A stretch of 27,400 nt of DNA from a virus (lineage: Duplodnaviria > Caudoviricetes), in the IMG/VR virus record IMGVR_UViG_3300010376_000866, positions 1 through 27,400 of that record; one strand, written 5' to 3'. Position 1 is the stretch's first letter. Each line of letters starts with the position of its first letter. Below, piece after piece: positions 1-23,799 of the stretch. The notes beneath the pieces are model-generated. The model ran no database searches, was not told the DNA's origin, and saw nothing but the letters and a program-made list of their open reading frames with translations. A program made the translations under genes and the position numbers.

Positions 1-578
1 CGCAGGAAGCCACTGCGGAGGTTCTCGGCGTTCATGAACCAGTTGAGTTCCTCCGCGTGAGCAGCCATCCAGTTCTCGAACTTGTCACGCTTGGTAGCCT
101 CGCGCTTGAGTTCGAGCTTCTCCTGCGCCACGCGGTACCTGGCGACCTCAGCCTCGAACAACTCCCGGTGGTCCAGCATGTACTGGCGCGTCCAGTGGTC
201 GCCGTGGTTGATGCCTCCGCAACCGCATGAGCAGAATCGCCCACGCGCCGCACGGCACTGGCTGTCACAGTCGAGCGTCGTGTCAACTGCGATCAGCTTC
301 TCTCCCAGGATTTCATGTTCCTGGTCTGGTCCGCCGATGAAGCAGAGGACACGGCTGTGCTTCGGGGCCAGGTGCGGGTACAGGCCCAGCTTGCTCTCGC
401 GTACTGGGACGTTGTGAACGTCGCATACCCCGAGATAGATCGTGGTCTGAGTGGCGTCCGTACTCGCATGGGCTGACCGTCGCACCTGCCTGTCGCCAAG
501 GTGCAGCGTCTCTGAGTCGGCCGTGTAGCTTGAACCATACATGCCTTTGGGTGTCATGGTCCGATAGGTGCTGCTCAT
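1..578 (-). CDS. Hypothetical protein with Cys/His metal-binding motif (partial, runs off window)
   Basis: Not in ORF track; hand-translated from ATG 578 after GGGAGAGGAGCCCAAG: MSSTYRTMTPKG...CDSQCRAARGRFCSCGCGGINHG...; open to window edge. Confidence 0.85.
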   Translation of the reverse strand, partial: MSSTYRTMTPKGMYGSSYTADSETLHLGDRQVRRSAHASTDATQTTIYLGVCDVHNVPVRESKLGLYPHLAPKHSRVLCFIGGPDQEHEILGEKLIAVDTTLDCDSQCRAARGRFCSCGCGGINHGDHWTRQYMLDHRELFEAEVARYRVAQEKLELKREATKRDKFENWMAAHAEELNWFMNAENLRSGFL

Positions 579-666
579 CTTGGGCTCCTCTCCCTAGGCG
601 TAAGCAGACCCCGCAACCTACCCTACCCGCGCGGGGCCGGGGCAGGGTAGGCTCCGGGCATGCTCA
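579..666 (-). promoter_or_regulatory. Intercistronic RNA module E1 (long hairpin plus SD hairpin)
   Basis: Minus strand AGCCTACCCTGCCC pairs with GGGTAGGGTAGGTT (2 G-U); flanks TGAGCATGCCCGG/GCGGGGTCTGCTTA. Confidence 0.75.
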
Positions 667-852
667 TCCGTAGTTGATCTTCTGATTGTAAGCGGACCAG
701 CCGTTGGGTCGGCCCTGGCCGGTACGCCTCTCGCGTTCCCGCCAATAGCGCTTGCTTTCTGCTGTGTTCCAGGCCTGGCAGAGCGGGCACCGACACTTCC
801 AGTATCGGTACCCGCTCCTGGTGCCGTGCCTGATATTAGCGGTTGGGGTCAT
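664..852 (-). CDS. Small HGT-x-CRC-x2-C zinc-binding phage protein
   Basis: RHGTRSGYRYWKCRCPLC motif; overlaps the stop of the upstream gene. Confidence 0.8.
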   Translation of the reverse strand: MTPTANIRHGTRSGYRYWKCRCPLCQAWNTAESKRYWRERERRTGQGRPNGWSAYNQKINYG

Positions 853-1267
853 TGTAGTACCCTGGCCTTATGGCCAGAATACCATGTATGACGCTCTCGA
901 TGGCCTCTGGGTCCAGCCATGTCTCGAACTTCATGACCACATCAGTGATCTCGTCTGATAGCACAGAGCGGAAGGCAGCGATGACGTGGCCTTTGATGCT
1001 GTGAAATCCGTGTCCGTTCGGGTTGTCATTATCAGCGCCGTACTTCTCCACCTGCTCCAGGACTTCCATGTACACTTCAGGAGGTACCATTGGTGCACCA
1101 GAATCAGTCTTGTAGGCAGCTTTCAGCGCTGCCAGGAAAGCAGACTTGGCCAGCCCGAGGGTCGTGGTATTGGCCCCGCCTGCATCTGCAATCGATGCCA
1201 GATAGAAGTCTCCAGCCTGCTGGGCTAGGTTCTCCTTGGGCGTAAGCCGCTTGTCGGTTAGATCCAT
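836..1267 (-). CDS. Hypothetical protein (143 aa)
   Basis: Start moved to ATG 1267 after GATGGGAAGGAGCCCATC. Confidence 0.8.
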   Translation of the reverse strand: MDLTDKRLTPKENLAQQAGDFYLASIADAGGANTTTLGLAKSAFLAALKAAYKTDSGAPMVPPEVYMEVLEQVEKYGADNDNPNGHGFHSIKGHVIAAFRSVLSDEITDVVMKFETWLDPEAIESVIHGILAIRPGYYNDPNR

Positions 1268-1362
1268 GATGGGCTCCTTCCCATCCCGTGCGCTAGCTTC
1301 TGTAACTAGCACCGGCAGCAGAGGCAGGGATTACCGGCCCTGCCCCGCTGTCTCGCGCTACT
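1268..1362 (-). promoter_or_regulatory. Intercistronic RNA module E2
   Basis: CGAGACAGC-GGGGCAGGG...CCCTGCCTCT-GCTGCCGG hairpin, alternative hairpin GTGCTAG/CTAGCGC, then SD hairpin. Confidence 0.75.
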
Positions 1363-1633
1363 CACATGTGCAGCATGGTTGCGGCACCGTTGGCTCTCCG
1401 TACAGGAGAGCGTCCGGCTCTGGGTCGATCATGGTTGGCTCGATACCTGGCAGGTGACAACCGCACTCACACGGCTCACCAGGCTCATCACGCGGGTCAG
1501 TGATGCACTCCCAGCAACCGCAGCCGGGCTTATGCTCATCATTAGGAGGCCAAAGGATTGAGCGGCATCCTGTTGGCCCCTGGTGCGGATAGGTGCCCAG
1601 GCAGTACGGGCACTGCTCAACCTGGTTAGCCAT
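1358..1633 (-). CDS. Cys-rich hypothetical protein (91 aa)
   Basis: MANQVEQCPYC...CGCWEC...CECGCH...CCTCE; start overlaps the upstream gene end. Confidence 0.7.
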   Translation of the reverse strand: MANQVEQCPYCLGTYPHQGPTGCRSILWPPNDEHKPGCGCWECITDPRDEPGEPCECGCHLPGIEPTMIDPEPDALLYGEPTVPQPCCTCE

Positions 1634-1808
1634 GAAGATCTGGGATGAGGAGGATGAACGGTGACCCATCATTGATCAGCGGATCGCTCTCATCGGTCAC
1701 CTCGATGACGGGCTTGGGACCTTTTGGAGTATCGACATACACCGGCAGGTGATCGCCGTACTCCTCTTCAATTGTCCCCTTGACCTGGGCGGCTGTTAGT
1801 GGTGGCAT
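1626..1808 (-). CDS. Hypothetical protein (60 aa)
   Basis: ATG after ATGGAAGGAGTCCATA. Confidence 0.8.
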   Translation of the reverse strand: MPPLTAAQVKGTIEEEYGDHLPVYVDTPKGPKPVIEVTDESDPLINDGSPFILLIPDLHG

Positions 1809-1890
1809 TATGGACTCCTTCCATCCGGACTCACTGTGAGCCGGCAGCTACCCTCCCGGCCCCTGTGTCGGGAGAGCGCTGTCTCGCTAG
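1809..1890 (-). promoter_or_regulatory. Intercistronic RNA module E3
   Basis: GCGAGACAGC-GCTCTCCCG...CGGGAGGGT-A-GCTGCCGGC; alternative hairpin CCGGCTCAC/GTGAGTCCGG; SD hairpin. Confidence 0.75.
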
Positions 1891-1893
1891 CAG

Positions 1894-2097
1894 CTAGTCT
1901 GCGCAAGCGAAGTGCTTGGGATTGGCGAAGTAGTTGAACGGACAATCTGAGTTGTAAGACGGCTCATAGGTGATTGTCCACTGGTACGAGACGTACCTGG
2001 TGTGATGGAAGTGCGCTGACACCATCATGCTGGTAACCATCACCGCGAAGCAGAGGATGAACCACATCAGCAGCTTGCCGAGCAGGTCCCTGTTCAT
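1894..2097 (-). CDS. Small membrane protein
   Basis: Hydrophobic N-terminus LLGKLLMWFILCFAVMVTSMMV; ATGA overlap with the upstream gene. Confidence 0.7.
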   Translation of the reverse strand: MNRDLLGKLLMWFILCFAVMVTSMMVSAHFHHTRYVSYQWTITYEPSYNSDCPFNYFANPKHFACAD

Positions 2098-2333
2098 AGC
2101 TTCTGATCGAACTCCTGTCCCAGAGTCTGAACGATCAATTCATTCATGCTGGCGTGAGCCGCCTTGGCCGTTCGGTCGGTCTTGCCGGTGATCTGGTTTG
2201 CCAGCTTGATCATGCTGGTACCACGGCTCAGTACCATCCCGGTACGCACCTGCGTCCGCAGGCCCATACGTATGGTAAGCCATCGAGCCGCCTCGATCTT
2301 CTCTGGCGTATCCAGAACGAATCCTTCTGACAT
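2094..2333 (-). CDS. Hypothetical protein (79 aa)
   Basis: ATG 2333 after ATGGGAAAGGAGCCCATA. Confidence 0.8.
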   Translation of the reverse strand: MSEGFVLDTPEKIEAARWLTIRMGLRTQVRTGMVLSRGTSMIKLANQITGKTDRTAKAAHASMNELIVQTLGQEFDQKL

Positions 2334-2421
2334 TATGGGCTCCTTTCCCATGGGCTGCTTCCTAAGCAGTCCCCGCTACCCTCCCCCGCCGGAATCCAGG
2401 GAAGGGCACCGGGCGTGCTCA
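2334..2421 (-). promoter_or_regulatory. Intercistronic RNA module E4
   Basis: TGAGCACGCCCGG-TGCCCTTCCC...GGGGGAGGGTA-GCGGGGACTGCTTA (flanks nearly identical to E1); alternative hairpin CTGCTT/AAGCAG. Confidence 0.75.
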
Positions 2422-2439
2422 GAACACGCGGTCTGGCTA

Positions 2440-2580
2440 CTAGACGAATGCGATAAAGTTGAACCCCTTCCATATGCCATAGTAGCACCAGAGGAGGATC
2501 ATGTTGACTAGGTTGCTGACCGTAACGGCCATCCGAACCATGAAGGTTATGGTACAACCTAGGCAACCGTGGCTGTTCAC
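2440..2580 (-). CDS. Small hydrophobic protein (46 aa)
   Basis: Below track cutoff; GTGA overlap; MNSHGCLGCTITFMVRMAVTVSNLVNMILLWCYYGIWKGFNFIAFV. Confidence 0.55.
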   Translation of the reverse strand: MNSHGCLGCTITFMVRMAVTVSNLVNMILLWCYYGIWKGFNFIAFV

Positions 2581-3587
2581 TCCACGCCCTTGCGACCGGA
2601 GTCACCGGCCGCTCTGTGGACGTGCAGGTTCAGCTCATTGGCCCGATCCACGCCACGCTGGTACGCGGTCATGTTCGTCTCGGGCCGCCGGTAGATACGA
2701 CCAGGAGGGTGCTGACGGCAGTGACCCGACGGGTTCGACTGGCATCGTGGGCAGGGTGGAGGTGGAGTCCAGGTTGACGTCCTGAACAAGTCCTCATTCT
2801 GCTCCCGGAAGAATGCCTCCAGGCTATCCGTCTGGCCATGCAGGACCAGCTCATACCCGACAGGCCGCTCACGCTCTGCCTCGCGCAGACGCTGCTCGAT
2901 GCGGTCGGTGTAACCGTCCGCAGCTGAGCTCCGGTAGGTGGCGGTACCCCCAGCAGCTATCCTGGGAGCATTCTCGCCAAGAGCAGCGGCCGCCCGGTAG
3001 CAGGCACGCTTGAAGCTAGAGCCGACACGGCCCTCAGTGGACTCCTCCAGAACCGTATAGCTCTGAGGGTCCCTGCGCTCCCAGATTGCCTTCTGCCCGG
3101 ACTTCTCACCATACCGGCGACTCCAGCCTGCTTCCTGCGCAATCTGAAGCCAGTTGTAACCGGCCTCATGCAGGTTGTAGCTGTTCGCGTCCACGGACAG
3201 GCTCGGGTCCCACTTGGGGGCCAGGACCTTGACCATGTGGAGCATGGTCTCTGTGTACAGCAACTCAAAGAAGCGCAGATCTGACTCAAAGCCATAGATC
3301 TTGCTCTTCGGGTAGCTGTGGCGGACCTTGCACCGGCAGTGCTTCGCCAGGTGATCGATCACCCAGGACACGAACATGACGTCTGGACGTTCGATCAGGA
3401 TGACCTCAGGCTTGCTCTTCTCAGCCTCGGGCCGGGACTCGTTGAGCAGAGCCTGGTCTATGGCGTACTTGAGCATCAGAGCATCAGCTGCACGCTGAGC
3501 CTGGGCCTCCTCCTCCGGGGTACACCCGTTCTCCACTGTCTTGGAGACCAGGCCTCGCACCTTCCGCAGGACATCCGACAGTTCCAT
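2577..3587 (-). CDS. DUF2786-domain protein
   Basis: N-terminal KVRGLVSK...TPEEEAQAQRAADALMLKYAID is the DUF2786 pattern; later IYGFESD and AYQRG..RA motifs; SAS-type SD. Confidence 0.8.
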   Translation of the reverse strand: MELSDVLRKVRGLVSKTVENGCTPEEEAQAQRAADALMLKYAIDQALLNESRPEAEKSKPEVILIERPDVMFVSWVIDHLAKHCRCKVRHSYPKSKIYGFESDLRFFELLYTETMLHMVKVLAPKWDPSLSVDANSYNLHEAGYNWLQIAQEAGWSRRYGEKSGQKAIWERRDPQSYTVLEESTEGRVGSSFKRACYRAAAALGENAPRIAAGGTATYRSSAADGYTDRIEQRLREAERERPVGYELVLHGQTDSLEAFFREQNEDLFRTSTWTPPPPCPRCQSNPSGHCRQHPPGRIYRRPETNMTAYQRGVDRANELNLHVHRAAGDSGRKGVE

Positions 3588-3700
3588 TGTGGGCTCCTTT
3601 CCCGCCTGGGACTGCTTGTAACCGGGGCAGATACCCCGGCCGCTACCCTACCCGCTCCCGCTCGCGCGGACGAGGGTAGGGCACGGTCTGAGGGACCTAC
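3588..3700 (-). promoter_or_regulatory. Intercistronic RNA module E5
   Basis: TGCCCTACCC...GGGTAGGGTA hairpin; alternative hairpin GGCCGGGG-TATCTG-CCCCGGTT; GGGAAAGGAGCCC. Confidence 0.75.
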
Positions 3701-3996
3701 TTAACGCACCCGTCGCGGCCGTGATGGTTCCTGGCCTCGGTCGAGCACTTCGGGCACGGCTGGAACCGTGTCTCATACCGTTCCGTCAGCCGGAAGCGGC
3801 GAATCCACTTGACCCTGTTGGCCCAGGTGAATGCCGGCTGCCCGACCATCTTGCGAGCGGTCTTCATGGTGTTATTGCGGACATCGTCCAGGACCAGGCC
3901 ACAGAAGGTCTGCTTGCCAAAGTCATGGATGGCGTGGCTGTAGGTAGCGTTGGGGGTTGCCACCCAACAGCCTGGCCAGATGTCAATCTGATCCAT
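3697..3996 (-). CDS. Putative zinc-binding protein (H..CG...CPKC, 99 aa)
   Basis: ATG 3996 after TGGGAAAGGAGTCCCA; SHAI..TFCG and PCPKC motifs. Confidence 0.75.
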   Translation of the reverse strand: MDQIDIWPGCWVATPNATYSHAIHDFGKQTFCGLVLDDVRNNTMKTARKMVGQPAFTWANRVKWIRRFRLTERYETRFQPCPKCSTEARNHHGRDGCVK

Positions 3997-4096
3997 TGGG
4001 ACTCCTTTCCCAGGGCTGAGATGCCCCGGCAACCTGCCTGCCCTCTTCCCAGGTTTCTACATCCCTGGAGGGGAAGGTAGGCTGCCGGCTGTCTCA
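3997..4096 (-). promoter_or_regulatory. Intercistronic RNA module E6
   Basis: CCGGCAGCCTACCT.../...AGGCAGGTTGCCGG long hairpin closed by TGAGA/TCTCA; alternative hairpin CCGGGGC/GCCCTGG. Confidence 0.75.
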
Positions 4097-4399
4097 GAAA
4101 CAGCCATCTCCGGTATTGGGCTTGCCGCCAATTTCCAGCAGCGTACCCTCCGGAATGACCAACTCGCCGAAGTGAATCAACTCGGCTAGCTGCATGAAGT
4201 CCTCACGCTCTTCAAGTACTTCATTGATCAGGAGTATGTCCTCGCCATCCTCCTGGGTGTCGCCGAAGATCCATCCTAGGCGTACACACCGGACGCTCAC
4301 GAATGAGGCTACCAGGTAGTTCGCCAAGTCTGGGTCCGGCTGGTAGATGATAACCGGCTCCGGATTATCGCCGACGATCCAACTGAGGTCAGTCGTCAT
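4094..4399 (-). CDS. Acidic hypothetical protein (~101 aa; start 4399 or 4420)
   Basis: C-terminal part of track ORF 4094..4540; start overlaps the end of the leader ORF at 4389-4439. Confidence 0.7.
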   Translation of the reverse strand: MTTDLSWIVGDNPEPVIIYQPDPDLANYLVASFVSVRCVRLGWIFGDTQEDGEDILLINEVLEEREDFMQLAELIHFGELVIPEGTLLEIGGKPNTGDGCF

Positions 4400-4439
4400 C
4401 GCAGAAATCCGATCGGTCATCTGTAAACTCACAACGCAT
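4389..4439 (-). CDS. 16-aa leader ORF MRCEFTDDRSDFCDDD
   Basis: The ATG directly after the SAS-type SD CTGGGAAGGAGCCTAGG opens this frame, not the long downstream frame. Confidence 0.45.
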   Translation of the reverse strand: MRCEFTDDRSDFCDDD

Positions 4440-4607
4440 CCTAGGCTCCTTCCCAGGGTCTTGCTTCCCGGCCCGAACGCCGGCAGCAGGAACCGGGGGT
4501 TGCCGCCCCGGCCGTCGCGACTCGGCACACCCCACAACAACGACTCTTCCCAGAGTCCCCTATGCGGCTATGCCCCCAGTCCCTACTGTCTAGATTCGGA
4601 TGGGTTT

Positions 4608-4736
4608 TCATCGATGTAGCCATACCATCAGGTGGTACAGGCGGAAGGTCGGGCCGGGTCCGATGACGTCGGCCGGTGAGCCGACGTACAAGGACACGTG
4701 CTGGACCAGGTACACCAGTACCAGGATCAGTATCAC
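4608..4736 (-). CDS. Small membrane protein (42 aa)
   Basis: GTGA overlap; MILILVLVYLVQHVSLYVGSPADVIGPGPTFRLYHLMVWLHR. Confidence 0.5.
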   Translation of the reverse strand: MILILVLVYLVQHVSLYVGSPADVIGPGPTFRLYHLMVWLHR

Positions 4737-4870
4737 TTGCCCACCACGATCGGGTGGATGTAGCGGTCCACGGTGAGGACAGCGCCGAAGCAGACACCCT
4801 TGACATCCTGGAGGATGACCACGGGGCCGTTGGTGCCGACGCCCAGCTCAGGGGACATGATCCTTGCCAT
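4733..4870 (-). CDS. Hypothetical protein (45 aa)
   Basis: MARIMSPELG... after AGGGAAAGGAGCCCAAA. Confidence 0.7.
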   Translation of the reverse strand: MARIMSPELGVGTNGPVVILQDVKGVCFGAVLTVDRYIHPIVVGK

Positions 4871-5062
4871 TTTGGGCTCCTTTCCCTTCTGGCTCTTTTC
4901 TTGGCTGGGGTACCCAGGCCAGCAGTGGTTGCGGGGACTTACGCATTTCGCCCACGGCAGCCCCTTGCGCTGCCTCGTAACTAATCGCCACTGCTGGGGT
5001 CTGAGTACCCCTCGCTGCCCTCCCCCTCGCGCGGGAGGGGAAGGGCACCGGGCTAGCACTCA
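4871..5062 (-). promoter_or_regulatory. Intercistronic RNA module E7 (extended, multibranch)
   Basis: TGAGTGCT..TGCCCTTCCCCT/AGGGGGAGGGCA..GGTACTCA hairpin overlaps a second structure GGGGTACTCAG..CCAGCAGTGG/CCACTGCTGG..CTGGGTACCCC. Confidence 0.75.
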
Positions 5063-5263
5063 GGCTACATGTAGAACCAGGTTGGGCCTAGCACACCGGG
5101 CGCAGAGGCAGCCGCCGCTCCCTCGCGCCATCTCGTACCGGAAGCGGCGATCCACCTCATGGGTGAGCTTGCTGGCCCGCTGGACGCTAATACCCAGCTC
5201 AGCAGCTAGCTCTCGCTCAATCCGGCTGCGGACAGATTCCGTGACTACACGGTTCGCGGACAT
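5060..5263 (-). CDS. Hypothetical protein (67 aa) with C-terminal CxCxxC
   Basis: ATG after TGGAAGGAGCCCAT. Confidence 0.75.
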   Translation of the reverse strand: MSANRVVTESVRSRIERELAAELGISVQRASKLTHEVDRRFRYEMARGSGGCLCARCARPNLVLHVA

Positions 5264-5296
5264 ATGGGCTCCTTCCAGGTCCGCTTGTTTCTTGCG

Positions 5297-5357
5297 CGCG
5301 CGGGGCCGGGGTCGAACCGGCCGCCCCTCCCGGAAGGGGAGGGGCCGCCTGCCGCGC
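5297..5357 (-). ncRNA. Minimal tRNA-like element (no true D-arm or anticodon)
   Basis: GCGCGG-CAGGCG-[GCCCCTCCC/GGGAGGGGC]-GGCCGG-TTCGACC-CCGGCC-CCGCGC: 6+6 bp acceptor/T helix with a TTCGA loop. Confidence 0.65.
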
Positions 5358-5364
5358 TATCTCC

Positions 5365-5814
5365 CTAGGCCGCGTTGACCCCGGAGATCTTTCCGGCCCA
5401 GTCGCTCCGGGCCGGAACAGGAATGGCACCTTCCGGCCAAACCCCACCGACCGGAAGGTAGTGGAGGATCTGGGCGGCCCATGCCAGCGCCGCGTCGCGG
5501 CCGGCAAGGTCGGTACCACGGACCTTGAGGGCGAATCCCTCAAAGGTCGAATCGGGCATGGCCTTGAGGGCGTCGCCCGCCGCTACGATCATCGCGCGAG
5601 CCAAGGAGTTCTTGGTCTCGTTGACGTTGACCTTTGGCTCCTTCGGAGCGGCCGGGACGCGGCCGGTTCCCTTGGCGCCGCTCGCCTTGATAACGGCGGC
5701 CATAGGGTCCGTAGCCGGAGCGGCCGGGGCCGGGGCGGGCGTACGGGTACCGGTGCCACGCCGGTTGCTTTTCGGGGCGGCCGGGGTAGCGGTTGAACGC
5801 GTGCGAGTAGCCAT
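5365..5814 (-). CDS. First gene of leftward operon; basic Ala/Pro/Thr-rich N-terminus (149 aa)
   Basis: ATG 5814 after TGGTAAGGAGACCAAA; codons avoid CAG/CTG over most of its length. Confidence 0.8.
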   Translation of the reverse strand: MATRTRSTATPAAPKSNRRGTGTRTPAPAPAAPATDPMAAVIKASGAKGTGRVPAAPKEPKVNVNETKNSLARAMIVAAGDALKAMPDSTFEGFALKVRGTDLAGRDAALAWAAQILHYLPVGGVWPEGAIPVPARSDWAGKISGVNAA

Positions 5815-5865
5815 TTTGGTCTCCTTACCAATAGCTACCAAAGGTCCCGGCGGTTACCGGGTCCG

Positions 5866-5986
5866 TGGACGTCCTAGGGGTCGAACCTAGTCCGAAAGGA
5901 GCGGAAAGGCCAAAACGCCCGGCCCGCCCCGGAACCGCTATTTGATCCGGGTAGGAGTCGGGACGCGCGCTTATTCCAAAACGTCC
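5866..5986 (-). ncRNA. tRNA-like element with enlarged interior
   Basis: 5' GGACGTT pairs with 3' GACGTCC(A); T-arm CTAGG-TTCGACC-CCTAG adjoins it directly (7+5 bp); ~90-nt interior with hairpins. Confidence 0.65.
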
Positions 5987-5989
5987 GAT

Positions 5990-6525
5990 TTGAGCTATTT
6001 ACCGAACCCCGCGACGGGTCCGCCCCCCGATACCTCCGGCGCGCCCGGAGCCGCCCGTAGGGGCCGCTTCCGGCTCGTACCCGTCGCTCCCTTCCCTCGC
6101 CCCGGGTCCGGAGATCCCGGCGGCCTAGGCCGCCCGGACGTCTCGCCCGTTTACGCCGATAAGGCCCCTTCGGGGCGGCCCCTCGTATCGCGTATTTTTG
6201 GCTAGGGAGATCGGCTCTAGATCGTAACCGGACCCCTACGGACCCCCTCCCCGCGACGGTCGCCCGGTAGCTCCTTCCCGACGCGGACCCGGCCGCCCTA
6301 GGACGGTCGGGGCCGGTTACGACGGCGAGAGGTTCGCCCCTCGCGTAGGGCCGGGAGATCGGTAACGGACGGCCCGGAAGAGGGGGCCGCGCGCTCCCCC
6401 GAGGGGGAGCGGTACCAAGATCGAGTTAGGTCGAATCGGGGCCGGCGGGGCGGCCCCGCTCGGAGCGGGACCCGGCCGGCGCTCCCTCCGGGCGGTCCGG
6501 AGGGGGACCCCTTCGGGGTCTACCC
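5990..6525. other. GC-rich, hairpin-dense non-coding leader
   Basis: No ATG on either strand; about 10 stems, e.g. GACCCC-GAA-GGGGTC, CGCTCCCC/GGGGAGCG, TCGTAACCGG/CCGGTTACGA, GGCGGCCTAGGCCGCC. Confidence 0.7.
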
Positions 6526-6528
6526 CCG

Positions 6529-6557
6529 ACCCTAATCACGGGTTTTGTACGGGCAAA
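6529..6557 (-). promoter_or_regulatory. Putative SigA/HrdB-type leftward promoter
   Basis: (T)TTGCCC-16/17 nt-TAGGGT directly upstream of the first hairpin of the leader. Confidence 0.5.
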
Positions 6558-7011
6558 ATTTTCCGGAGTTAGCCGAGGTAGATTGTTTAGCGGCGCTAAT
6601 TACTACGCACGGTAGAGTCCTACACTCTAGTAGGAATAGCCTCCGAAGTGCGGAAACGTCTTTAGTTAATTTGCCTACCTAATAAGCCGCGCTAAGCAAA
6701 TTTCGTACGGGTTTAGGTCCTAGCGAGTGTTATCGGAGATAAGTCCGATTGGAAGAGTCCGATTGCTACCCTAGATTCGTCTTCGCCCGGTTAAGTGTTT
6801 AAATTCGGACTTATCCCGATTTGTTATCCATAAGCCTCTGACCTGTGGAAATGGATAGCTCTGGGCAGGGTAGGTCCTAGTACACGAGAGGGGGTACGTC
6901 CATGCAGTGTGGCTCCTAGCCACAGCGAGAGGGTATCCGTGGCTGACCTGTGGCGACGCTCCGGGCCGCTCGGGGGCCGGGGTCGATGGGGTACAAAAGG
7001 TATTTTGCGTA

Positions 7012-7404
7012 CTAGAATACCTAGAATACGAGATAACCGGTATTCTAGCCAGAATACGGGTAATACCCGTAAGGGGGACACTGGTACTGTAATCGTAGTT
7101 TGTAGGTCGAAATAGGACGTAATTCTTGTAGAGGGAGAATGTATACAATACCAGTCTAAACGATCTTGAAATTCTAGTATGTATGCCATTCGGACCTGTG
7201 GGTATATACGATATGCAACCACCAGAATACGGGTTTTCTGGGTCCCTAAGGGGTACTCGTATTCTAGTGGGTGAATACCAGTGCAAACTGGTACTCTGGT
7301 AGCCTAGTATGGTATACCCACCTACACTGGTATCATATAAGTCTTAGGGGACTAGTAGAACCAAAGCTAGAATACCAGTGTAAAAGGGGTAACTGGGATT
7401 CTGG
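7012..7404. repeat. Array of CYAGARTAC(CAGT) repeats, mostly as inverted pairs
   Basis: AGAATAC at 7014, 7023, 7051, 7224, 7369; GTATTCT at 7040, 7259; variants at 7273, 7287, 7325, 7393. Confidence 0.75.
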
Positions 7405-8079
7405 TAGTGTAAAACGGCCGAAACAACGTGCAGGGGATAAATTGGACTTTGGGCCGATTGACCCGGACCCCTCGCGAGCGGCCCCTACGGGGCCGGGCCG
7501 GGGCCGGGCCGCGCTGCCCTAGGGCCGGGGCGAGGGGCCGCCCGTAGGGCGGGGGAGCGGGAGGGGCCGCCGGGCTAGGGGTGGAGGGGCCGGGGGAGGG
7601 TCAGGCCAGGAGTCGGCGCGCCGACGTTTGGTTAGCTAGGGTAATGGTTTGTAGGACGGATCATTTGAGCGAGGGATAGTTTGAGGTGGAGATCGTATGG
7701 ACTCAAGATCTTTTGGGGAAGAGATCTTATGGTTAACATATCGTTAGCTTGGGGAAAGATCTAACAAAACGATCTTGGTCCCGCAAAATGGTTGGAAGTT
7801 CCGGCGCATCGGCGCGGACTCAAACACAATTTTGCTCATTTTGAACTGCATTTCCTGAAAAGTTGGCCACAAAAACACCAAAACCCAAAAAACTACAACA
7901 CTATTTCACTCAAAATGGGTTTTGCACAGTCAAAACCCAACGGAACCATCATATAACACAGATAAACCCCACCAAAACTAGGATTTACTAGCTAACCAGC
8001 AGCGAAAGGGGGTACGATAGCGGAGCGCCCGGCCGCAGCCCGGAAAAGCGCACCAGACCAAAGCAGAGCAGGAGCGAGC

Positions 8080-8583
8080 ATGGCACGGATGGCACGCATC
8101 CCGAGAACAACTAAACGCAGCATAAGCAAGGAGGCAACCCCATTGGCTCCGGACAGGACGACAGCAGAAGTGAACATGGCCTGGGAACAGTACAAGTCGG
8201 CGACCAATGATGCTCTTCTCGTGTACGAGCAGAATGTCGATGAGGCCCGCATGCAGAGGGATAAAGCCACTGCTGTGGCCAGGGCCGAGTTCAACGAGAA
8301 GATGGATGAGATTGACTCCACATTTGATCTCGCGTTGGCGGCCGCTTGGACACAGCACCGGCAGGCCTCTGATACGGCGCGGACTATTCGCGACCATATC
8401 ACCGACAGCATCCGGCACTCCCTGACCGCTGAAGAGCTTGAACATGCCCAGAGGATGGCGCAAGCTGCACAGCAGGCCAGCTACGCTCAGGATGAGGACT
8501 CTCAGGTCATCATTGCCAATGTAACCGACGCAGGATCTGCAGGCTCCCCGCAGTCTGCTGCGGTGGACCCGCCCACCCCCTAG
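8080..8583 (+). CDS. Coiled-coil hypothetical protein
   Basis: 167-aa ORF, helical and Ala/Glu-rich; GGAG upstream. Confidence 0.75.
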   Translation: MARMARIPRTTKRSISKEATPLAPDRTTAEVNMAWEQYKSATNDALLVYEQNVDEARMQRDKATAVARAEFNEKMDEIDSTFDLALAAAWTQHRQASDTARTIRDHITDSIRHSLTAEELEHAQRMAQAAQQASYAQDEDSQVIIANVTDAGSAGSPQSAAVDPPTP

Positions 8584-8628
8584 GCCGCGACACCTAGGAC
8601 ACGGGTCTACTGACTGCGGGTCGAGGAA

Positions 8629-8736
8629 GGAGGGGTGGTCCAGTGGGGCTGCCGCTAACGCCAAGTCCGAATGCTGGCGAGCCGGACAAGGAACACGCCC
8701 CCGAGTCCGGCGGTGCGGTGCCTGGGCCACCCCTCC
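8629..8736 (+). ncRNA. Candidate structured RNA (multibranch)
   Basis: 15-bp closing stem GGAGGGGTGGTCCAG/CTGGGCCACCCCTCC enclosing CGCCA/TGGCG and GCCGGAC/GTCCGGC hairpins. Confidence 0.5.
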
Positions 8737-8771
8737 ACTTCTTCCCAAAATTTCACTGGGGCGGCATACTG

Positions 8772-8939
8772 TTGTTGCCGGTCCTAATTTTGGATGATGA
8801 GCCGGCCATTAGGAGCTACATTCGAACCATTGCTGGGAAAGAGCATTACCGTTATGTGTGCCCGGCTGTGCCACAGACAGATTGGGCCAGCGAGATGGAT
8901 GATATTTTTGGACCATACTGTTGGGTGGAGGTTTGGTAA
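8772..8939 (+). CDS. Small protein resembling the N-terminal part of a receiver domain
   Basis: TTG start after the RNA element; VLILDDEPAIRSYIRTIAGKEHY; TAATG coupling to the next gene. Confidence 0.5.
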   Translation: MLPVLILDDEPAIRSYIRTIAGKEHYRYVCPAVPQTDWASEMDDIFGPYCWVEVW

Positions 8940-9253
8940 TGGAAGAGACCCAAGGGCCATTTTTGCATCAGGACATTATTGTACAGGCTGCTGTCAGGGC
9001 AGCTCTTGAAGAGGAAGCTGTCGCCAAGCAGGCACAGGCGATTGTCAGGCCCATGATGCTGGCCCCCGGCAATGGTCCCAAGGCCATAGAGGTTCATTTC
9101 CTGGACAGAGATGTTAGGCATTTCAGGAGCCAGGATTTTGTTTGCCTAGATGGAGCAGTGTGGCTGCGGGGCTTGCTGGGGCCGGGCAACACCGTGACGG
9201 ACAAGGATGTGCTAATTCCCTTTTCTGCCATTAAGGAGATTTATGTCACCTAG
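8939..9253 (+). CDS. Hypothetical protein (104 aa)
   Basis: TAATG overlap, GGAGG upstream; C-terminal VLIPFSAIKEI is Sm/PRC-like. Confidence 0.75.
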   Translation: MEETQGPFLHQDIIVQAAVRAALEEEAVAKQAQAIVRPMMLAPGNGPKAIEVHFLDRDVRHFRSQDFVCLDGAVWLRGLLGPGNTVTDKDVLIPFSAIKEIYVT

Positions 9254-9257
9254 CAGA

Positions 9258-9389
9258 ATGCTGTTTCTTGTAGGCACAGTTCTCCTAGCGGCGATTGCGG
9301 CCGCGCTGCTCTATGCCGGCAACGGGCATGCCGTGCCCATTCCAGCGCCGCAGCCGACTCCAGATGCACCAGGATGGGTGAACCCGTGA
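9258..9389 (+). CDS. Small membrane or secreted protein (43 aa)
   Basis: Below cutoff; MLFLVGTVLLAAIAAALLYAGNGHAVPIPAPQPTPDAPGWVNP; fills the gap and has a GTGA overlap. Confidence 0.6.
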   Translation: MLFLVGTVLLAAIAAALLYAGNGHAVPIPAPQPTPDAPGWVNP

Positions 9390-9589
9390 GCCAGCCGCCA
9401 CCCCCGGATATCATCCCGGTGCACGCTGATGATCCGGTTGATCCTGGCAGTACCGCTGCCCTCATTCGGGATCAGGTCCCTGTGGGCACTCCTTTGTGCA
9501 TGCACCCATGGGGGCCTGGCGGCCACTACTGTGCCCAGAACGCAGGGCACTCGACCAGCCACATATGTAACTGTGGAGCAACAACATGA
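9386..9589 (+). CDS. Cys/His-rich small protein
   Basis: GTGA overlap; C..HYC...GH..SHICNCG. Confidence 0.65.
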   Translation: MSQPPPPDIIPVHADDPVDPGSTAALIRDQVPVGTPLCMHPWGPGGHYCAQNAGHSTSHICNCGATT

Positions 9590-9813
9590 TGGATCGTAAT
9601 GAGGCCGATGAAGCGGCCATCGCGAGAGCCATGCCCGAGGCCGAGCTAGTTGCCATCGCGAGGGAGTCTGGTGCCGTGCCGGAAATGGCATGCGCCTGCG
9701 TTGGCCCGCCTGAAGGTTGCACGATTTGCCACTGCCACATCCGCGCCGAGGCACTATCTATTGTTATGGGACGCCCCTGCGCATGGTGCGAACCGGCACA
9801 TCCAACCCGTTGA
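9586..9813 (+). CDS. Cys-rich small protein
   Basis: ATGA overlap, GGAG SD; CACVGP..GC..CHC, CAWC. Confidence 0.7.
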   Translation: MMDRNEADEAAIARAMPEAELVAIARESGAVPEMACACVGPPEGCTICHCHIRAEALSIVMGRPCAWCEPAHPTR

Positions 9814-9817
9814 ACGT

Positions 9818-10186
9818 ATGAGACTGGAGCCTGAAATGACGCCCGAGGAGCGCGCAATTGAAGCAAGGCGCGGCATTCTTATGCAACATCTTGCAAGAGC
9901 TAAAATGGAGCAGGGCGAAACCGGTGACGCGGGCGTGTTTGCTAGCTACAGCAGCGAAACCGGTGATGCAGGTGGGTTCCTGCTGGAGGAACAGACCGCG
10001 ACTCCGGATCGCCACATTACCAAGACTGAGGCCGAGTACCAGTTTGCTGGGATCGGGGCTAACATGCATTGCGGCAACTGCGCTATGTATAACCCCTATG
10101 CTAGCAACCCCAGCGCGGGCCGCTGTGATCTCGGCTGGCAGGCCAAGGCCACCTACGTTTGCAACCAGTGGGTGGCGAAAACATAG
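9818..10186 (+). CDS. Protein with C-terminal HiPIP-like 4Fe-4S domain
   Basis: TKTEAEYQ..HCGNCAMY..GRC..YVCNQWVAK fits the HiPIP Cys pattern; duplicated ETGDAG in the N-terminal part. Confidence 0.65.
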   Translation: MRLEPEMTPEERAIEARRGILMQHLARAKMEQGETGDAGVFASYSSETGDAGGFLLEEQTATPDRHITKTEAEYQFAGIGANMHCGNCAMYNPYASNPSAGRCDLGWQAKATYVCNQWVAKT

Positions 10187-10220
10187 ACTTCTGCCAAATT
10201 GGCAGGGGAGGAAGGCAAAA

Positions 10221-10730
10221 ATGAGGAAATGGCTCCTGGCCGGCGCAGCGCTTTTGGCGCTGACTCTGGCTAGCCCGCTGGTGGCGATTTCGGCAAGTGC
10301 CTCACCAGCAACCCAGGCGACCCCGGCTATTGCGCAATCTTGCGCCTATGCCTCGATTCACGGGTTCAGCGACCCGTGGTACCTGTGGAATAGCGGGTCT
10401 GCGGATTACGTGATCGAGCAGGGGCATAGCCCGACGAACTTCTGTTACACCACCAGCGCGACGCTGCAGCAGGTAGGCACATCCTCCTGTCTCGCTTGGA
10501 ACCAGAGTGGCGGGTATGTGTACGAGCACTCTTGTGCGCCGGGCGCTGCCTACCAGACTTGGAACCTGATTTTCATCAAGACAGGTTCGGTGTGCTATGC
10601 CTGGGCTCTGCAGAACCTATACAACGACCAGTACCTGACAGCGATAGCCATCGGTTCACCGGCGTCTCTGCGAGCCAAGATCGTGAGAAACGGCAGCTTC
10701 TCGAACACCCAGACTTGGTGCGCTCCGTAA
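10221..10730 (+). CDS. Secreted ricin-B-type lectin
   Basis: Signal peptide MRKWLLAGAALLALTLA..ASA; SSCL..C..YQTW and TQTW (QxW) motifs; GGAGG SD. Confidence 0.75.
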   Translation: MRKWLLAGAALLALTLASPLVAISASASPATQATPAIAQSCAYASIHGFSDPWYLWNSGSADYVIEQGHSPTNFCYTTSATLQQVGTSSCLAWNQSGGYVYEHSCAPGAAYQTWNLIFIKTGSVCYAWALQNLYNDQYLTAIAIGSPASLRAKIVRNGSFSNTQTWCAP

Positions 10731-10733
10731 CAA

Positions 10734-10791
10734 GTCGCCCGAGACGGCCCGCCCCGGTACGCGACAGCCGGGGCGGGTCCCAGGGAGTGAA
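10734..10791 (+). promoter_or_regulatory. Intergenic hairpin resembling the left-arm modules
   Basis: CGAGAC-GG-CCCGCCCCGG...CCGGGGCGGG, then GGGAG SD; no U-tail. Confidence 0.45.
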
Positions 10792-11079
10792 ATGCCTAGC
10801 GAGCGTAAGACGCTACTGGAACTGATAGGCCAGGACGAGATCAATCGCATTGCGGCCGAGAGCATTGAGGTCCTGGATCATGAGCCAGGGCCGGCAGACA
10901 TCTGGGACCACACCAGACGATTGCCACCCACGGGCGGGTATAGCAGCGAGTGGGAATACATTTGCAATCACTTCTTTGTCTGGGATGTGAAGTTGTATTG
11001 CCGCGAGTGTGGCTGCGAAGTTCTGGCGGCATGGGTAGTCCCCCACTATAGATCACACACGAGTCACTTTTCATTCTAG
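10792..11079 (+). CDS. Hypothetical protein with C2H2-like motif
   Basis: YCRECG..PHYRSH; GGGAG SD. Confidence 0.7.
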   Translation: MPSERKTLLELIGQDEINRIAAESIEVLDHEPGPADIWDHTRRLPPTGGYSSEWEYICNHFFVWDVKLYCRECGCEVLAAWVVPHYRSHTSHFSF

Positions 11080-11087
11080 GAGACGAA

Positions 11088-11432
11088 ATGGCATTCAAGT
11101 TCACCGCAGTCGGCAGCAAGGAAGAGGCTACCGCCCAGCTGCGTGACATCGCCAACGGACTGGTAGAAGTTGGCAATGATCGAATGGCCCAGCGCGTGGC
11201 ATACCTCCTCGCGGATGAACTGGGCAAGCACCCAGACTTTGAGCACACCGGCTATGAGTACCGCTACATGGTGCAGGCCGAGGGCAACGGCAATGCTACG
11301 ATGGGGCCGACCGAGCTACGGGCAGTGATACAGAACTACTGGATCCATCCTGCGAAGCTGGTGGTTAAGCCAGTCGATTCCGAGGGTAGAGTTATCGAGA
11401 TACCTCTGATGCCGGAGCAGCAAGATGGATGA
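11088..11432 (+). CDS. Hypothetical protein (114 aa)
   Basis: AGGAG SD; GC-ending codons. Confidence 0.8.
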   Translation: MAFKFTAVGSKEEATAQLRDIANGLVEVGNDRMAQRVAYLLADELGKHPDFEHTGYEYRYMVQAEGNGNATMGPTELRAVIQNYWIHPAKLVVKPVDSEGRVIEIPLMPEQQDG

Positions 11433-11640
11433 ACCGCTGTTCATAGCAGGGATCATATTCTTTTTCCTGCTGGGGTTCGCCGGCCAGTTCGAGAGGATGT
11501 ACAAGATCGAGCGGGGGAAGCAGATTGAGCGGGCACAACGAGACCAGTACTACATCGGCCTCTACAATACCAACCGGCCTCGGCTCCGATACCCACCATA
11601 TCCAGTACGTCGAAGCAAGACGGGCTTGGGGCCTCATTAA
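11425..11640 (+). CDS. Single-TM membrane protein
   Basis: LFIAGIIFFFLLGFAG; GGAG SD; overlaps the upstream stop. Confidence 0.65.
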   Translation: MDEPLFIAGIIFFFLLGFAGQFERMYKIERGKQIERAQRDQYYIGLYNTNRPRLRYPPYPVRRSKTGLGPH

Positions 11641-11806
11641 ATCTGGCCCCAACTTCGGCAAGAAGTCCAACCTTTTCATAGTACGCGGGAAGTGCGTTTG
11701 TGAGCAGTGGGAACATGAGGTTACCACTGCGGTCTCCTTCGCATATGCACGCTCCCGGCTCCGTGAGGCATTCAGGCCTCACAGGGCGGCAGCCGACGCG
11801 GCCTGA
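11525..11806 (+). CDS. Possible hypothetical protein (start uncertain)
   Basis: HHI..GKCVCEQW..AFRPH looks metal-binding and fills the gap, but overlaps the previous ORF by 116 nt. Confidence 0.35.
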   Translation: MSGHNETSTTSASTIPTGLGSDTHHIQYVEARRAWGLIKSGPNFGKKSNLFIVRGKCVCEQWEHEVTTAVSFAYARSRLREAFRPHRAAADAA

Positions 11807-11825
11807 TCGCCCGGTTCGCCCGGAT

Positions 11826-11936
11826 AGCGCCCCGTATCACCTGGTTCGCGTAACCGAGATTCTGGTCCATAGGAGGTTGGTCCTAGACTCGGCTCCCAGC
11901 TTCGGCTAGGGTACGCGCCGGGAGGTACGGGGCGTT
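11826..11936 (+). promoter_or_regulatory. Structured 5' leader sequestering the SD and start of putative terS
   Basis: 11826-11852 pairs with 11912-11936 (13+5+6 bp); internal C-UUCG-G hairpin. Confidence 0.65.
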
Positions 11937-12435
11937 GTCAACTGCTGCAAGTCTCGACAAGCTCATTGCAAGGTCAGGTCACACTGAGCAACAGCTGCGT
12001 GTGGAACTTGCGCGTGGAGCGAAGTCAGATCGGGACCTTTGCCGGCAGTATGGTATCAACACAACCCATCTCAAGGCGTTCATTGAACTGAACGCCGATG
12101 CCATCGCAGAGATAGGTGCTCATCTCGCGAAGGGTGACCCGATAGGGCTGGCTGGCCTGTGGGTGAGCGCAAAGAACATGCGCATAGCCGAGATGCAGGG
12201 TGACATCGAGGACATCAACCGATCCATAAATTTCTTCCGTGATGAAGATGGTGTCCTGAGCCCGCAGTTCGGCACAGACAAAGAGTATGCGAATCTCATC
12301 CGGACCAAGACTGGCCTCTTGCGATCCGTTGCCGATGAAATTGATGGCACACGCCGCGCTATCCTCTCGCCCGAGGATGAGCGGAAGATGGTGCGCTTTG
12401 TCATCGACGGCGACATCGCAGGCGGTCTTACATGA
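11935..12435 (+). CDS. Putative terminase small subunit
   Basis: N-terminal HTH-like segment (SDRDLCRQYGINTTHL), central helices, C-terminal beta strand VRFVIDG; lies upstream of terL; GGGAGG SD. Confidence 0.6.
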   Translation: MSTAASLDKLIARSGHTEQQLRVELARGAKSDRDLCRQYGINTTHLKAFIELNADAIAEIGAHLAKGDPIGLAGLWVSAKNMRIAEMQGDIEDINRSINFFRDEDGVLSPQFGTDKEYANLIRTKTGLLRSVADEIDGTRRAILSPEDERKMVRFVIDGDIAGGLT

Positions 12436-12917
12436 GGACGCAAGAGGGCTGGTTCTGCGATCTGAGGTTTGAGGGCTGTGGCACGGACGCACTCAGTGCC
12501 TGGCTCTGTGCCGTAGAACAGATTGAGGTTTCAGCCTGTCGGCCTTGTAGAGAACAGTGGCAGGAGCTAGCCCGTAATGAGCCTGCGCTCCGGGTTCGCT
12601 GCCCACGTTGTGCTGACCGGCAAATCCGCGAGGCAAGGCGGAAGCCACAGGACCCAGGACCGCTTACCGGCCTGGTAGCGAATGCCCTTGATGAAGCTAT
12701 GCGAGTTGAGGGCATTCTTGTAGACGCCCGCATCCGTGTGCTACGCCGTCTGGCCAGGGACGCAGCGTGGCTGAATGGATGGGGGTCCAGTTCGGCGGGG
12801 GCAGCTGCACCTGAGGATGCGGGCCAGCGCGGAATCGTGAGTGCGCCCCCTGTCGAGCCGGTCCTGGGCAGAGGTCGGCTGCCTGGGGCCGGTATGGGAG
12901 CCGCGTTATGCCCGTGA
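12432..12917 (+). CDS. Cys-rich hypothetical protein between terS and terL
   Basis: ATGA overlap; CRPC and CPRC motifs. Confidence 0.55.
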   Translation: MRTQEGWFCDLRFEGCGTDALSAWLCAVEQIEVSACRPCREQWQELARNEPALRVRCPRCADRQIREARRKPQDPGPLTGLVANALDEAMRVEGILVDARIRVLRRLARDAAWLNGWGSSSAGAAAPEDAGQRGIVSAPPVEPVLGRGRLPGAGMGAALCP

Positions 12918-14269
12918 TGCTTGAGCACAAATACGGCCCTCGGGGTGCCTGTAGCGTTGTATTCAAAGCACGGGACCCTGAGGTTCTCATTTCTGGACCG
13001 GCCGGCACAGGGAAGTCGAGAGCATGTCTGGAGAAGCTCAACCTGATGTGCCTCAGCAATCCGGGGATGCGGGGCCTGATCGTCCGGAAGACTGCCACAA
13101 GCCTCTCATCGACTGCTCTCGTTACCTGGAAGAAGTTTGTTATAGCGGAACTCCTCCAGGTGGGAGATGTCAGGTACTACGGTGGCAGCGCTTCAGAGCC
13201 TGCGGCTTTTCTGTACCGTAACGGTTCCAGCGTCTCCATCGCGGGCATGGACAAGCCTACCAAGGTCATGTCATCGGAGTATGACGTCATATATGTTCAG
13301 GAAGCTACTGAGCTAACTGAGACTGACTGGGAGTCATTGATATCCCGGCTCCGTAACTGGGTGGTTAGCTTCCAGCAAATCATTGCCGACTGCAACCCTA
13401 GTCATCCGACGCACTGGCTAAAGTTGCGGTGTGATACCGGCAAGACTCGTATGCTGGAGAGCCGACACGAGGACAACCCGGTACTATTTGATGACGATGG
13501 AGAACTAACCGAGAAGGGTTATGACTACATCGGCAAGCTAGACCGGCTGACGGGCGTACGGAGATTGCGCCTGCGGCTGGGCATGTGGGCGAGCGCTGAA
13601 GGCATCATCTATGAGGACTGGAGTGCCTCCCACATCATTACGCAAATCCCGGCTGGTGACGGTGAGGCGCGTGATCCGTTTGGGGTTCCAATGGCCTGGC
13701 CGCGCATTTGGAGCGTTGACTTTGGGTTTGTGAACCCCTTCGTCCTGCAGTGTTGGGCGGAGGATGGAGATGGACGCCTGTATTTGTATCGTGAGCTGTA
13801 CCACACTCACAGAACTGTGGATGTTCACGCGAAGACGATTCTCAATATTGTTGCTCCAGAGCTTCCTGACGGCCGGCGCGTATGGCTTGAGCCCCAGCCA
13901 GTCGCTGTTGTTTGCGACCATGACGCTGAAGGTCGAGTTGTCCTTGAGCGCGAACTTGGGGTGTCCACACAGGCAGCTCACAAGTCTGTACTTGAAGGCA
14001 TCGACTCTGTACAGGCTCGTATGAAGGATGCGGGCGATGGCAAAGCCCGTGTTTATCTGGTAGCTAACTCCCTCGTGGAACTGGATGAGGAACTGAAGGA
14101 ATCTGGCAAGCCTTCTTGTACGGTCGAGGAAATCCCCGGCTATGTCTGGAAGTCAAATGAGAAGGATGAGCCGCTCAAAGCCGATGACCACGGCTGTGAC
14201 GCTATGCGGTATGCCGTTGCCGACCGCGATTTTGGCATCCGCGCTATCTACAGGAGTTTTTCGGCATGA
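12908..14269 (+). CDS. terL: Terminase large subunit (PBSX/SPP1-like)
   Basis: Walker A GPAGTGKS, Walker B VIYVQEATE, DCNP..HWL, nuclease motifs VDFGF and DDHGCDAMRY. Confidence 0.95.
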   Translation: MPVMLEHKYGPRGACSVVFKARDPEVLISGPAGTGKSRACLEKLNLMCLSNPGMRGLIVRKTATSLSSTALVTWKKFVIAELLQVGDVRYYGGSASEPAAFLYRNGSSVSIAGMDKPTKVMSSEYDVIYVQEATELTETDWESLISRLRNWVVSFQQIIADCNPSHPTHWLKLRCDTGKTRMLESRHEDNPVLFDDDGELTEKGYDYIGKLDRLTGVRRLRLRLGMWASAEGIIYEDWSASHIITQIPAGDGEARDPFGVPMAWPRIWSVDFGFVNPFVLQCWAEDGDGRLYLYRELYHTHRTVDVHAKTILNIVAPELPDGRRVWLEPQPVAVVCDHDAEGRVVLERELGVSTQAAHKSVLEGIDSVQARMKDAGDGKARVYLVANSLVELDEELKESGKPSCTVEEIPGYVWKSNEKDEPLKADDHGCDAMRYAVADRDFGIRAIYRSFSA

Positions 14270-14556
14270 CAGCGATACCACTAATGGCAGTGCCTGAGCA
14301 GCCGGAATCGACCCGGCTAGATCGGGCGGCACGCCGGTTCGCGCGAGCGGGCCGTGCCGGGGCCGTCCTAGCGGCGCGCGTCCTAGGCGCGCGGTCGCGG
14401 GCCGGGATCGGAGCGCTTAGGGAACATCTTTATGCAGCATGCGGGCTAGGGGCGTTCACGGCTGCGGGGTTCGTGCACAGTACCTTTACCGGACTGCTGG
14501 TTCTGGGCGCTTCGTTCCTGGTTTTTGAGTTTAAGACTGAGAGGCCGGAAGACTGA
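14266..14556 (+). CDS. Small membrane protein between terL and portal
   Basis: ATGA and TGATG coupling; two hydrophobic segments. Confidence 0.75.
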   Translation: MTAIPLMAVPEQPESTRLDRAARRFARAGRAGAVLAARVLGARSRAGIGALREHLYAACGLGAFTAAGFVHSTFTGLLVLGASFLVFEFKTERPED

Positions 14557-16034: not shown

Positions 16035-16037
16035 GAT

Positions 16038-17387: not shown

Positions 17388-17390
17388 TAC

Positions 17391-18809: not shown

Positions 18810-18887
18810 GCTGTAACCTCGTCCGTACCCTACGGGGAGTAGGACAAATCCGCCGGCATTCACACCCCGGCAGGAAGGTAGCCAGAA

Positions 18888-19367: not shown

Positions 19368-19370
19368 GCC

Positions 19371-20332: not shown

Positions 20333-20505
20333 TGTGGGATTGTGAACACTGCGGCTGCCAGGCAATCGCAGGGAGTCTGGAGGATTGTCCTGTGTGCTGG
20401 AAGCCGAAGGGGTCTGCGGCGGTTCTGGCCGTAGAGGAGACTCCTGCGGAATCCACGGAAGTACCCGCTGGCAACGGCACATCTGATGACAAGAAAGGAT
20501 GGTGA
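20332..20505 (+). CDS. Small zinc-ribbon protein (RanBP2-like spacing, 57 aa)
   Basis: Below cutoff; TGATG coupling; MWDCEHCGCQAIAGSLEDCPVCWKPK. Confidence 0.7.
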   Translation: MWDCEHCGCQAIAGSLEDCPVCWKPKGSAAVLAVEETPAESTEVPAGNGTSDDKKGW

Positions 20506-20510
20506 CCCAG

Positions 20511-20657: not shown

Positions 20658-20658
20658 C

Positions 20659-23798: not shown

Positions 23799-23799
23799 C

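Follow-up and report, generated by a model that had tools for sequence, protein, structure and literature searches.

The stretch of DNA analysed here (the window) is a 27.4-kb fragment (27,400 nucleotides) of an uncultured tailed soil phage, IMG/VR record IMGVR_UViG_3300010376_000866, with an estimated genome completeness of 39%. The genes for terminase, portal, protease and capsid proteins are oriented rightward and are found from 12.9 kb on, and bases 1 to 5830 are occupied by small leftward genes without assigned function, separated by intergenic gaps of 85 to 190 nt. Ten starts in this leftward array carry the Shine-Dalgarno (SD) sequence in the loop of a short hairpin; these SD hairpins, which resemble the start-associated sequence (SAS) of cluster K mycobacteriophages, are the subject of this report. 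The phage does not belong to cluster K: no match was obtained by blastn for bases 1 to 8000 against phage records, and the closest relatives of the terminase are found in Thermobifida and Streptomyces phages. A DUF2786 gene of the array (phrog_421, ATG at 3587) has relatives in Streptomyces, Gordonia and Microbacterium phages. Since the relatives of both proteins belong to phages of actinobacteria, the host is probably an actinobacterium as well. The leftward genes are presumably early genes, judging from their position and from analogous regions of cluster K phages. For the 149-aa first protein, neither a homologue nor a fold match was found.

All ten hairpins are located on the minus strand where the sequence-only reading had placed them, with AGGAG 5 to 6 nt ahead of the ATG in each case, and the five hairpins quoted there are letter-exact in the sequence. 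Hairpin 1 (579..597, loop AGAGGAG) precedes the ATG at 578, hairpin 2 (1268..1285, 6-bp stem, loop AAGGAG) that at 1267, hairpin 3 (1810..1824, loop AGGAG) that at 1808 and hairpin 4 (2335..2351, loop AAAGGAG) that at 2333. Hairpin 5 (3589..3605) belongs to the DUF2786 gene, hairpin 6 (3997..4012) to the ATG at 3996 and hairpin 7 (4440..4457) to the ATG at 4439, followed by hairpin 8 (4874..4886, 3 bp, ATG 4870), hairpin 9 (5265..5277, ATG 5263) and hairpin 10 (5816..5831), which precedes the ATG of the array's first gene (5814). AGGAG is invariant in the loops and the stems are variable. Stem stability ranges from -1.2 kcal/mol (site 5263, the weakest) to -9.5 kcal/mol (site 1267), an eightfold spread, with essentially a 3-bp core at sites 578, 3587, 4870 and 5263 and a G-U pair in the stem of site 4439. 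The loops fall into two main registers of 6 and 7 nt (overall size 5 to 8 nt), and at most sites they are predicted to be unpaired in their local context.

Defined as an ATG preceded at 5 to 6 nt by an AGGAG that lies within a loop closed by at least 3 bp, the pattern occurs ten times on the minus strand of bases 1 to 8000, compared to 0.072 on average and never more than 2 in 1000 dinucleotide shuffles, and was not found on either strand of bases 8000 to 27400. Folding at the ten sites is more stable than at the 76 remaining AGGAG sequences of the window (p = 6e-5). The seven rightward starts with AGGAG fold at 0 to -2.9 kcal/mol only, in agreement with the earlier statement that rightward genes do not use the element. 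The compensatory changes noted in the flanks are supported too, as cognate arms pair better than permuted ones: 137 of 200,000 permutations were as good with 7-nt arms and 3585 of 200,000 with 5-nt arms. The ten SD hairpins are thus very probably real structures of the RNA type.

Among 81 DUF2786 loci (de-duplicated from 110, the entry L129, which is the window itself, being dropped), the same array was found only in one record, L130, and its near-copy L131. AGGAG starts folding at -3 kcal/mol or better amount to 63 of 295 in the relatives and 8 of 9 in the window. L130 contributes four true starts, each with an AAGGAG-type loop on a different stem. In the orthologous gene for a 79-aa protein (window ATG 2333, 63% identity), the stem is wholly replaced, i.e. 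all five stem pairs differ, and the loop remains of the AAGGAG type; the lower stem and the internal loop of the long hairpin located further upstream (2360..2424) are retained. With all 14 sites of the window and L130, none of 200,000 arm permutations reached the observed pairing. Alignment of all 14 sites in the hexaloop register gives 15 doubly changed cells, a value not reached in 500 shuffles, while the heptaloop register over the same sites is not significant (81/500); a test on a hexaloop-selected subset comprises only 6 of the 14 sites and is biased upward. In Streptomyces phage Rooney, where the sequence is a different one and the geometry the same, the arms covary as well (12/50,000; 22 sites, some of which are not annotated starts). 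None of 15 related records, 14 of which had been retrieved through their capsid, shows the SD-hairpin pattern, and an exact scan of viral contigs for SAS plus ATG returned 12 loci, all isolated matches without arrays. Structural selection on the hairpins, as claimed from the sequence alone, is therefore supported by arm covariation in the window phage, L130 and Rooney. A conserved loop on freely changing stems points to something that reads the loop sequence.

Rooney (L004, MZ648033.1) has a further peculiarity. Its minus strand carries six repeats (13271, 14707, 17283, 18266, 18647 and 19680) that immediately precede SD hairpins; the 5' arm of the SD hairpin is at the same time the closing strand of the repeat. 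The repeats combine two variable stems with the cores GAAA and CUGA-N-GA and resemble a hammerhead ribozyme in this motif. No matches were obtained with Rfam at gathering level on Rooney, Krampus and a further record (L001), and a literature search on the Rooney repeats returned nothing relevant.

The likeness to the SAS of cluster K and to the motif of cluster EF Microbacterium phages was borne out. Five of the ten window sites lie within two mismatches of the cluster K 13-mer and the other five at three or more; four are one position off either published 13-mer (cluster K or EF). In addition, the placement is that of the SAS, namely 3 to 9 nt before the ATG of non-structural genes, in one orientation and below wide upstream gaps. 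In the accessible text of Pope et al. 2011 (PMC3203893), the SAS is termed non-palindromic and its reader is left open, and its function is still given as unknown in the available parts of publications from 2024 and 2025 (PMC11373665, PMC12699233). Covariation across SAS-bearing phages, as expected by the sequence-only reading, holds for the window phage, L130 and Rooney, but not for Anaya, Pixie, TM4 and Krampus, for which 21,783, 7983, 27,180 and 20,435 of 50,000 arm permutations, respectively, were as good as the observed pairing. While the window arms covary, the cluster K and EF sites are near-invariant and give no covariation signal. The SAS of Anaya, Pixie, TM4 and Krampus can form 3-bp stems and is compatible with a hairpin. 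About half of the cluster K sites have an extended start-associated sequence (ESAS) upstream, a 17-bp inverted repeat with a SigA-like promoter. No promoter of this type was found in the window gaps by the promoter scans described below, which did not include a search for the ESAS consensus; the window does contain long inverted repeats, but these differ in form from the ESAS.

Upstream of the first gene, a complement to the SD loops was found. Five copies of the 9-mer GAAAGGAGC are present in the window, where 0.17 would be expected: three at SD sites, one in a rightward open reading frame (ORF) and one in reverse orientation at 5894-5902, roughly 60 nt upstream of SD hairpin 10. This reversed copy complements only the loop and the closing pair and has a stem of its own; hence, it is not a simple inverted duplicate. 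It is part of a 55-nt element of predicted tRNA shape (module 1, 5866..5920) in non-coding DNA on the same strand as the SD hairpins. Module 1 has a 7-bp acceptor-like stem with two G-U pairs, no D-arm, a 4-bp arm (5891-5905) with the loop CUCCUUU (5895-5901), which is complementary to AAAGGAG and thereby to the commonest SD loop, and, directly after it, a T-arm (5874-5890) with the loop UUCGACC. Both positions following the anticodon equivalent are U. A second tRNA-like element (module 2, 5297..5357, minus strand) follows the first gene and consists of a 6-bp acceptor-like stem, a long middle hairpin and a T-arm (5305-5321) whose loop is again UUCGACC but whose stem differs. The two modules thus flank the first gene of the array. 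For the 8 kb, two T-arms contrast with an expectation of 0.012, and not one of 1000 shuffles contained as many; the mRNA strand is favoured by the motif of the T-loop and by the two G-U pairs. ARAGORN reported no tRNA gene, and neither module 1 nor any other element was called; a full cloverleaf with a canonical anticodon loop is absent. Rfam gave no credible family for bases 1 to 8200 (12 matches up to E 10, neither C4 nor YrlA/Y RNA among them).

Several other loops of this kind were noticed. At 5945-5962, about 50 nt from the anti-SD loop, the plus strand encodes a hairpin with a GGAG loop (on the minus strand, a CUCCU-containing loop), which is not followed by a start codon. A capsid relative (G005; L220:12575-12600, plus strand) carries a hairpin with the loop CCUCCUUUA, a candidate anti-SD loop; a census of tags and anti-tags in five capsid relatives was too noisy for use. 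Six phage tRNA-like genes (L244, L288, L290, L293, L297 and L303) are called tRNA-Arg(CCT) by ARAGORN and have the anti-SD-like anticodon loop CU-CCU-UU, with a small control of 99 contexts, of which four had both stems and two of these were CCT.

A single reversed SAS copy not tied to a start is found in the window (5894-5902) as in cluster K, where Pope et al. (PMC3203893) describe four K1 phages with one reversed SAS apiece. Anaya has this copy between its genes 96 and 97, as the apical loop capping a long hairpin of the sense strand; the region is matched by 144 phage records and missing from TM4. Among 11 aligned genomes with the region, five have the exact loop, two a near, CU-rich version, and four have lost it. 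For the seven loop-bearing genomes in the alignment of 12, pairing of the stem amounts to 97%, with four doubly changed pairs, a result reached in 1 of 500 shuffles of these related sequences. In Adephagia, the reversed SAS occupies the gap that separates genes 92 and 93, from which late transcription appears to initiate according to Freeman et al. (PMC11373665); such timing would suit a brake on early genes. Rfam searches of six cluster K loci returned sub-threshold matches only. The right end of cluster K genomes also harbours a conserved structured non-coding leader of approximately 270 nt without Rfam family (L228:34690-35070 and homologues).

Most gaps of the array contain, in addition to the SD hairpin, a long imperfect hairpin, which often begins at the upstream stop codon and has a G-G mismatch or bulge and a pyrimidine/purine-rich upper stem. 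With approximate bounds, these elements were assigned on the minus strand to 600..670 (beginning at the upstream stop codon), 1318..1352, 1840..1885 and 2360..2424 (before the genes starting at 1267, 1808 and 2333), 3640..3687 and 4015..4097 (before those starting at 3587 and 3996), 4478..4590 (a branched long stem before site 4439) and 5000..5064 (after the stop codon of the gene starting at 5263). Compared to shuffles, seven of the ten gaps fold with z at or below -2.5 on the mRNA strand, and in 8 of 10 z was lower on this strand than on the opposite one. The asymmetry of G-U versus A-C in the long hairpins was not significant (43:30, p = 0.08; 19:12, p = 0.14), RNAalifold on ten of them gave no pairs and no consensus structure, and region 5830-6560 did not exceed its shuffles in stability (z -0.79 and +0.36).

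A sigma-70 scan of the gaps returned one site, with 2.6 expected. In relatives (L097-L207), a promoter-like motif, GTAGC(G)-N18-TA..T, was found before small genes on the gene strand, and also in Krampus and Rooney; the model built from it (62 distinct training sites) had 88 matches at spacer 18 on the gene strand and two on the other. On the minus strand of 500-6000, its best score was 3.8, compared to a 10th percentile of 18.8 for the training sites, and GGGTAGC within the long hairpins was rejected as an intact promoter (score not above 3.8). Because the internal promoters of the relatives are absent from the window gaps, the array is probably read as one long leftward transcript. Many relatives also have an AGGCGA tag near their starts (757 compared to 183 on the other strand).

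Some further features of the window are worth mentioning. The ATG at 4439 opens a 16-codon ORF only (4389-4439, minus), which overlaps an ORF of 108-112 codons (4094-4432, minus) in a different frame. A frameshift error was considered and rejected, as contigs of two runs (X2, X3) span the site without indel; the short ORF is possibly a leader peptide or serves translational coupling. A contig of the X3 run has about 41 additional bases at 2427-2431, in the gap before the gene starting at 2333, and none of the 40 listed substitutions, out of 42, hits an SD hairpin or module 1. The protein encoded at 1-578 is 99% identical across 170 residues to that of L130:2224-3315, with a different N-terminus and leader, which suggests a recent cassette exchange. 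The non-coding, AT-richer region 6550-7950 contains repeats of AATACCAGT and TAGAATAC and a 23-nt inverted repeat (7212-7277), and words near 6824-6850 resemble DnaA boxes; it is a possible replication origin.

The explanation favoured here, with a probability of roughly 40%, is that the SD hairpins are shared targets of a predicted phage anti-SD RNA, module 1, which would damp translation of the array. The ten SDs sit in the loops of short covarying hairpins, and the CUCCUUU loop of module 1 would pair with them loop-to-loop (kissing), damping the whole, presumably early, array. Host tRNA-processing enzymes might release a stable tRNA-like RNA, whose accumulation would serve as a timer; the long hairpins may be sites of processing or 3' protection. 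In a wider and more doubtful form, the actinophage SAS might be a common address for phage anti-SD RNAs, provided by a tRNA mimic in the window phage and by a late-leader hairpin in K1 phages, i.e. an RNA-only switch that shuts an early gene class.

Several observations weigh against such an antisense RNA. The loop of module 1 was noticed post hoc, and a CUCCUU loop on a stem of at least 4 bp arises in 138 of 1000 shuffles and the exact reversed 9-mer in 24 of 1000. The tRNA-like fold (-16.7) lies 2.7 kcal/mol above the minimum free energy structure (-19.4), both of which retain the arm, and the predicted accessibility of the loop drops from about 0.9 to below 0.15 depending on the 5' boundary chosen. 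Predicted duplexes with nine SD sites (-11.6 to -14.3) overlap those with two rightward SDs (-11.6 and -12.8), and the first gene (5814), with the poorest match to the anti-SD loop, reaches only -8.0. Module 1 lies on the early strand and is not evidently within a late transcript, and no promoter for the leftward array was identified by the sigma-70 and GTAGC-type scans. No homologue of module 1 was found in two pattern scans, the L130 sequence ending short of that region. Among the cluster K genomes with the region, Yuna, Marshawn, Keshu and Pixie have lost the reversed loop (4 of 11); Pixie, TM4 and Krampus possess the SAS but no exact antisense copy, and a stand-alone antisense copy is also missing from Rooney. 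Accordingly, an anti-SAS RNA cannot be the sole reason for such sites.

The SD hairpins could also act without any reader in trans, by keeping the SD folded and exposed amid stable GC-rich neighbours and setting the initiation rate of each gene, while the modules and long hairpins would punctuate cutting of the RNase P/Z and RNase III type. Polycistronic transcripts of the T7 and SPO1 early regions are cut between genes. The stable folding of the gaps and its strand preference, the SD loops predicted to be unpaired and the eightfold spread in stem strength are consistent with this explanation, as is Rooney, where SD hairpins with six hammerhead-like elements directly upstream occur without a separate antisense copy. 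It leaves unexplained, however, why module 1 carries the exact complement of the commonest SD loop, and the long hairpins show neither a significant G-U versus A-C asymmetry nor a consensus structure. Display of this kind is somewhat less probable than an antisense reader, with which it can coexist.

A protein reading GGA(G) in the loop and controlling the genes jointly appears unlikely. It might be a host or phage protein, either CsrA/RsmA-like or similar to RegB of phage T4, a nuclease cutting at GGAG. Targets of CsrA/RsmA present GGA in a short hairpin loop overlapping the SD, as do the window sites, and an invariant AGGAG on variable stems fits a loop-reading protein. On the other hand, invariance of AGGAG is equally explained by its role as SD, and the loop size varies from 5 to 8 nt. 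The CsrA-type protein suggested by the sequence-only reading was not recovered: neither the window nor any of 17 records from relatives or SAS-bearing phages (Anaya, Pixie, TM4, Krampus and Rooney included) matched PF02599, and a Pfam scan revealed no RNA-binding family among 30 window proteins. The gene may lie in the remaining 61% of the phage genome, or the protein may be provided by the host; one publication lists Actinobacteria among the phyla possibly regulating CsrA through FliW (PMC4682653), and in the accessible text of Freeman et al. (PMC11373665) a phage protein acting on SAS genes is speculated upon. Finally, the sites might function as DNA (operator, stoperator or recombination sites), with a dyad symmetry only incidentally allowing RNA folding. 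The cassette-like gaps and the gene body shared with L130 behind a differing leader, which suggests shuffling at cassette borders, would fit, but the fixed spacing of 5 to 6 nt to the ATG, the single orientation and arms that change fully and yet stay complementary, including the G-U pair at 4439, make this very improbable.

The SAS has been without explanation since 2011. Compensatory changes, missing in cluster K, are provided by the window phage and its relative L130 and argue strongly that some SAS-type sites, at least, are hairpins in RNA. In K1 phages, the reversed copy is a concrete candidate regulator in the late-start gap of a tractable phage (Adephagia on M. smegmatis). SAS-type repeats as such are known (PMC3203893, PMC7302621, PMC11373665, PMC12699233); literature searches, whose coverage did not extend to most subscription papers and to supplements (Fig. 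S3 of Pope et al., Table S3 of PMC12699233), returned no description of the SAS as hairpins or of an anti-SAS RNA.

As described in the accessible parts of PMC3203893 and PMC7302621, the SAS of cluster K and of cluster EF phages is an SD-containing, over-conserved repeat, and the same applies here. Early regions of T7 and SPO1 likewise consist of small genes parted by long imperfect hairpins with internal loops, which are RNase III sites; the window adds SD-display hairpins and tRNA-like modules, and its long hairpins are putative cleavage sites. With the CsrA/RsmA targets, the window hairpins share the display of GGA over the SD, but they differ in that no CsrA was found, the loop length is variable and a complementary RNA loop is encoded in the same genome. 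The C4 antisense RNA of phages P1 and P7 is a structured RNA, which is cut out by RNase P and pairs with its loops at ribosome-binding sites, similar to what is proposed for module 1. In contrast to C4, of which no Rfam match was obtained in the window region searched, module 1 would target about ten separate genes via the SD itself and not one operon.

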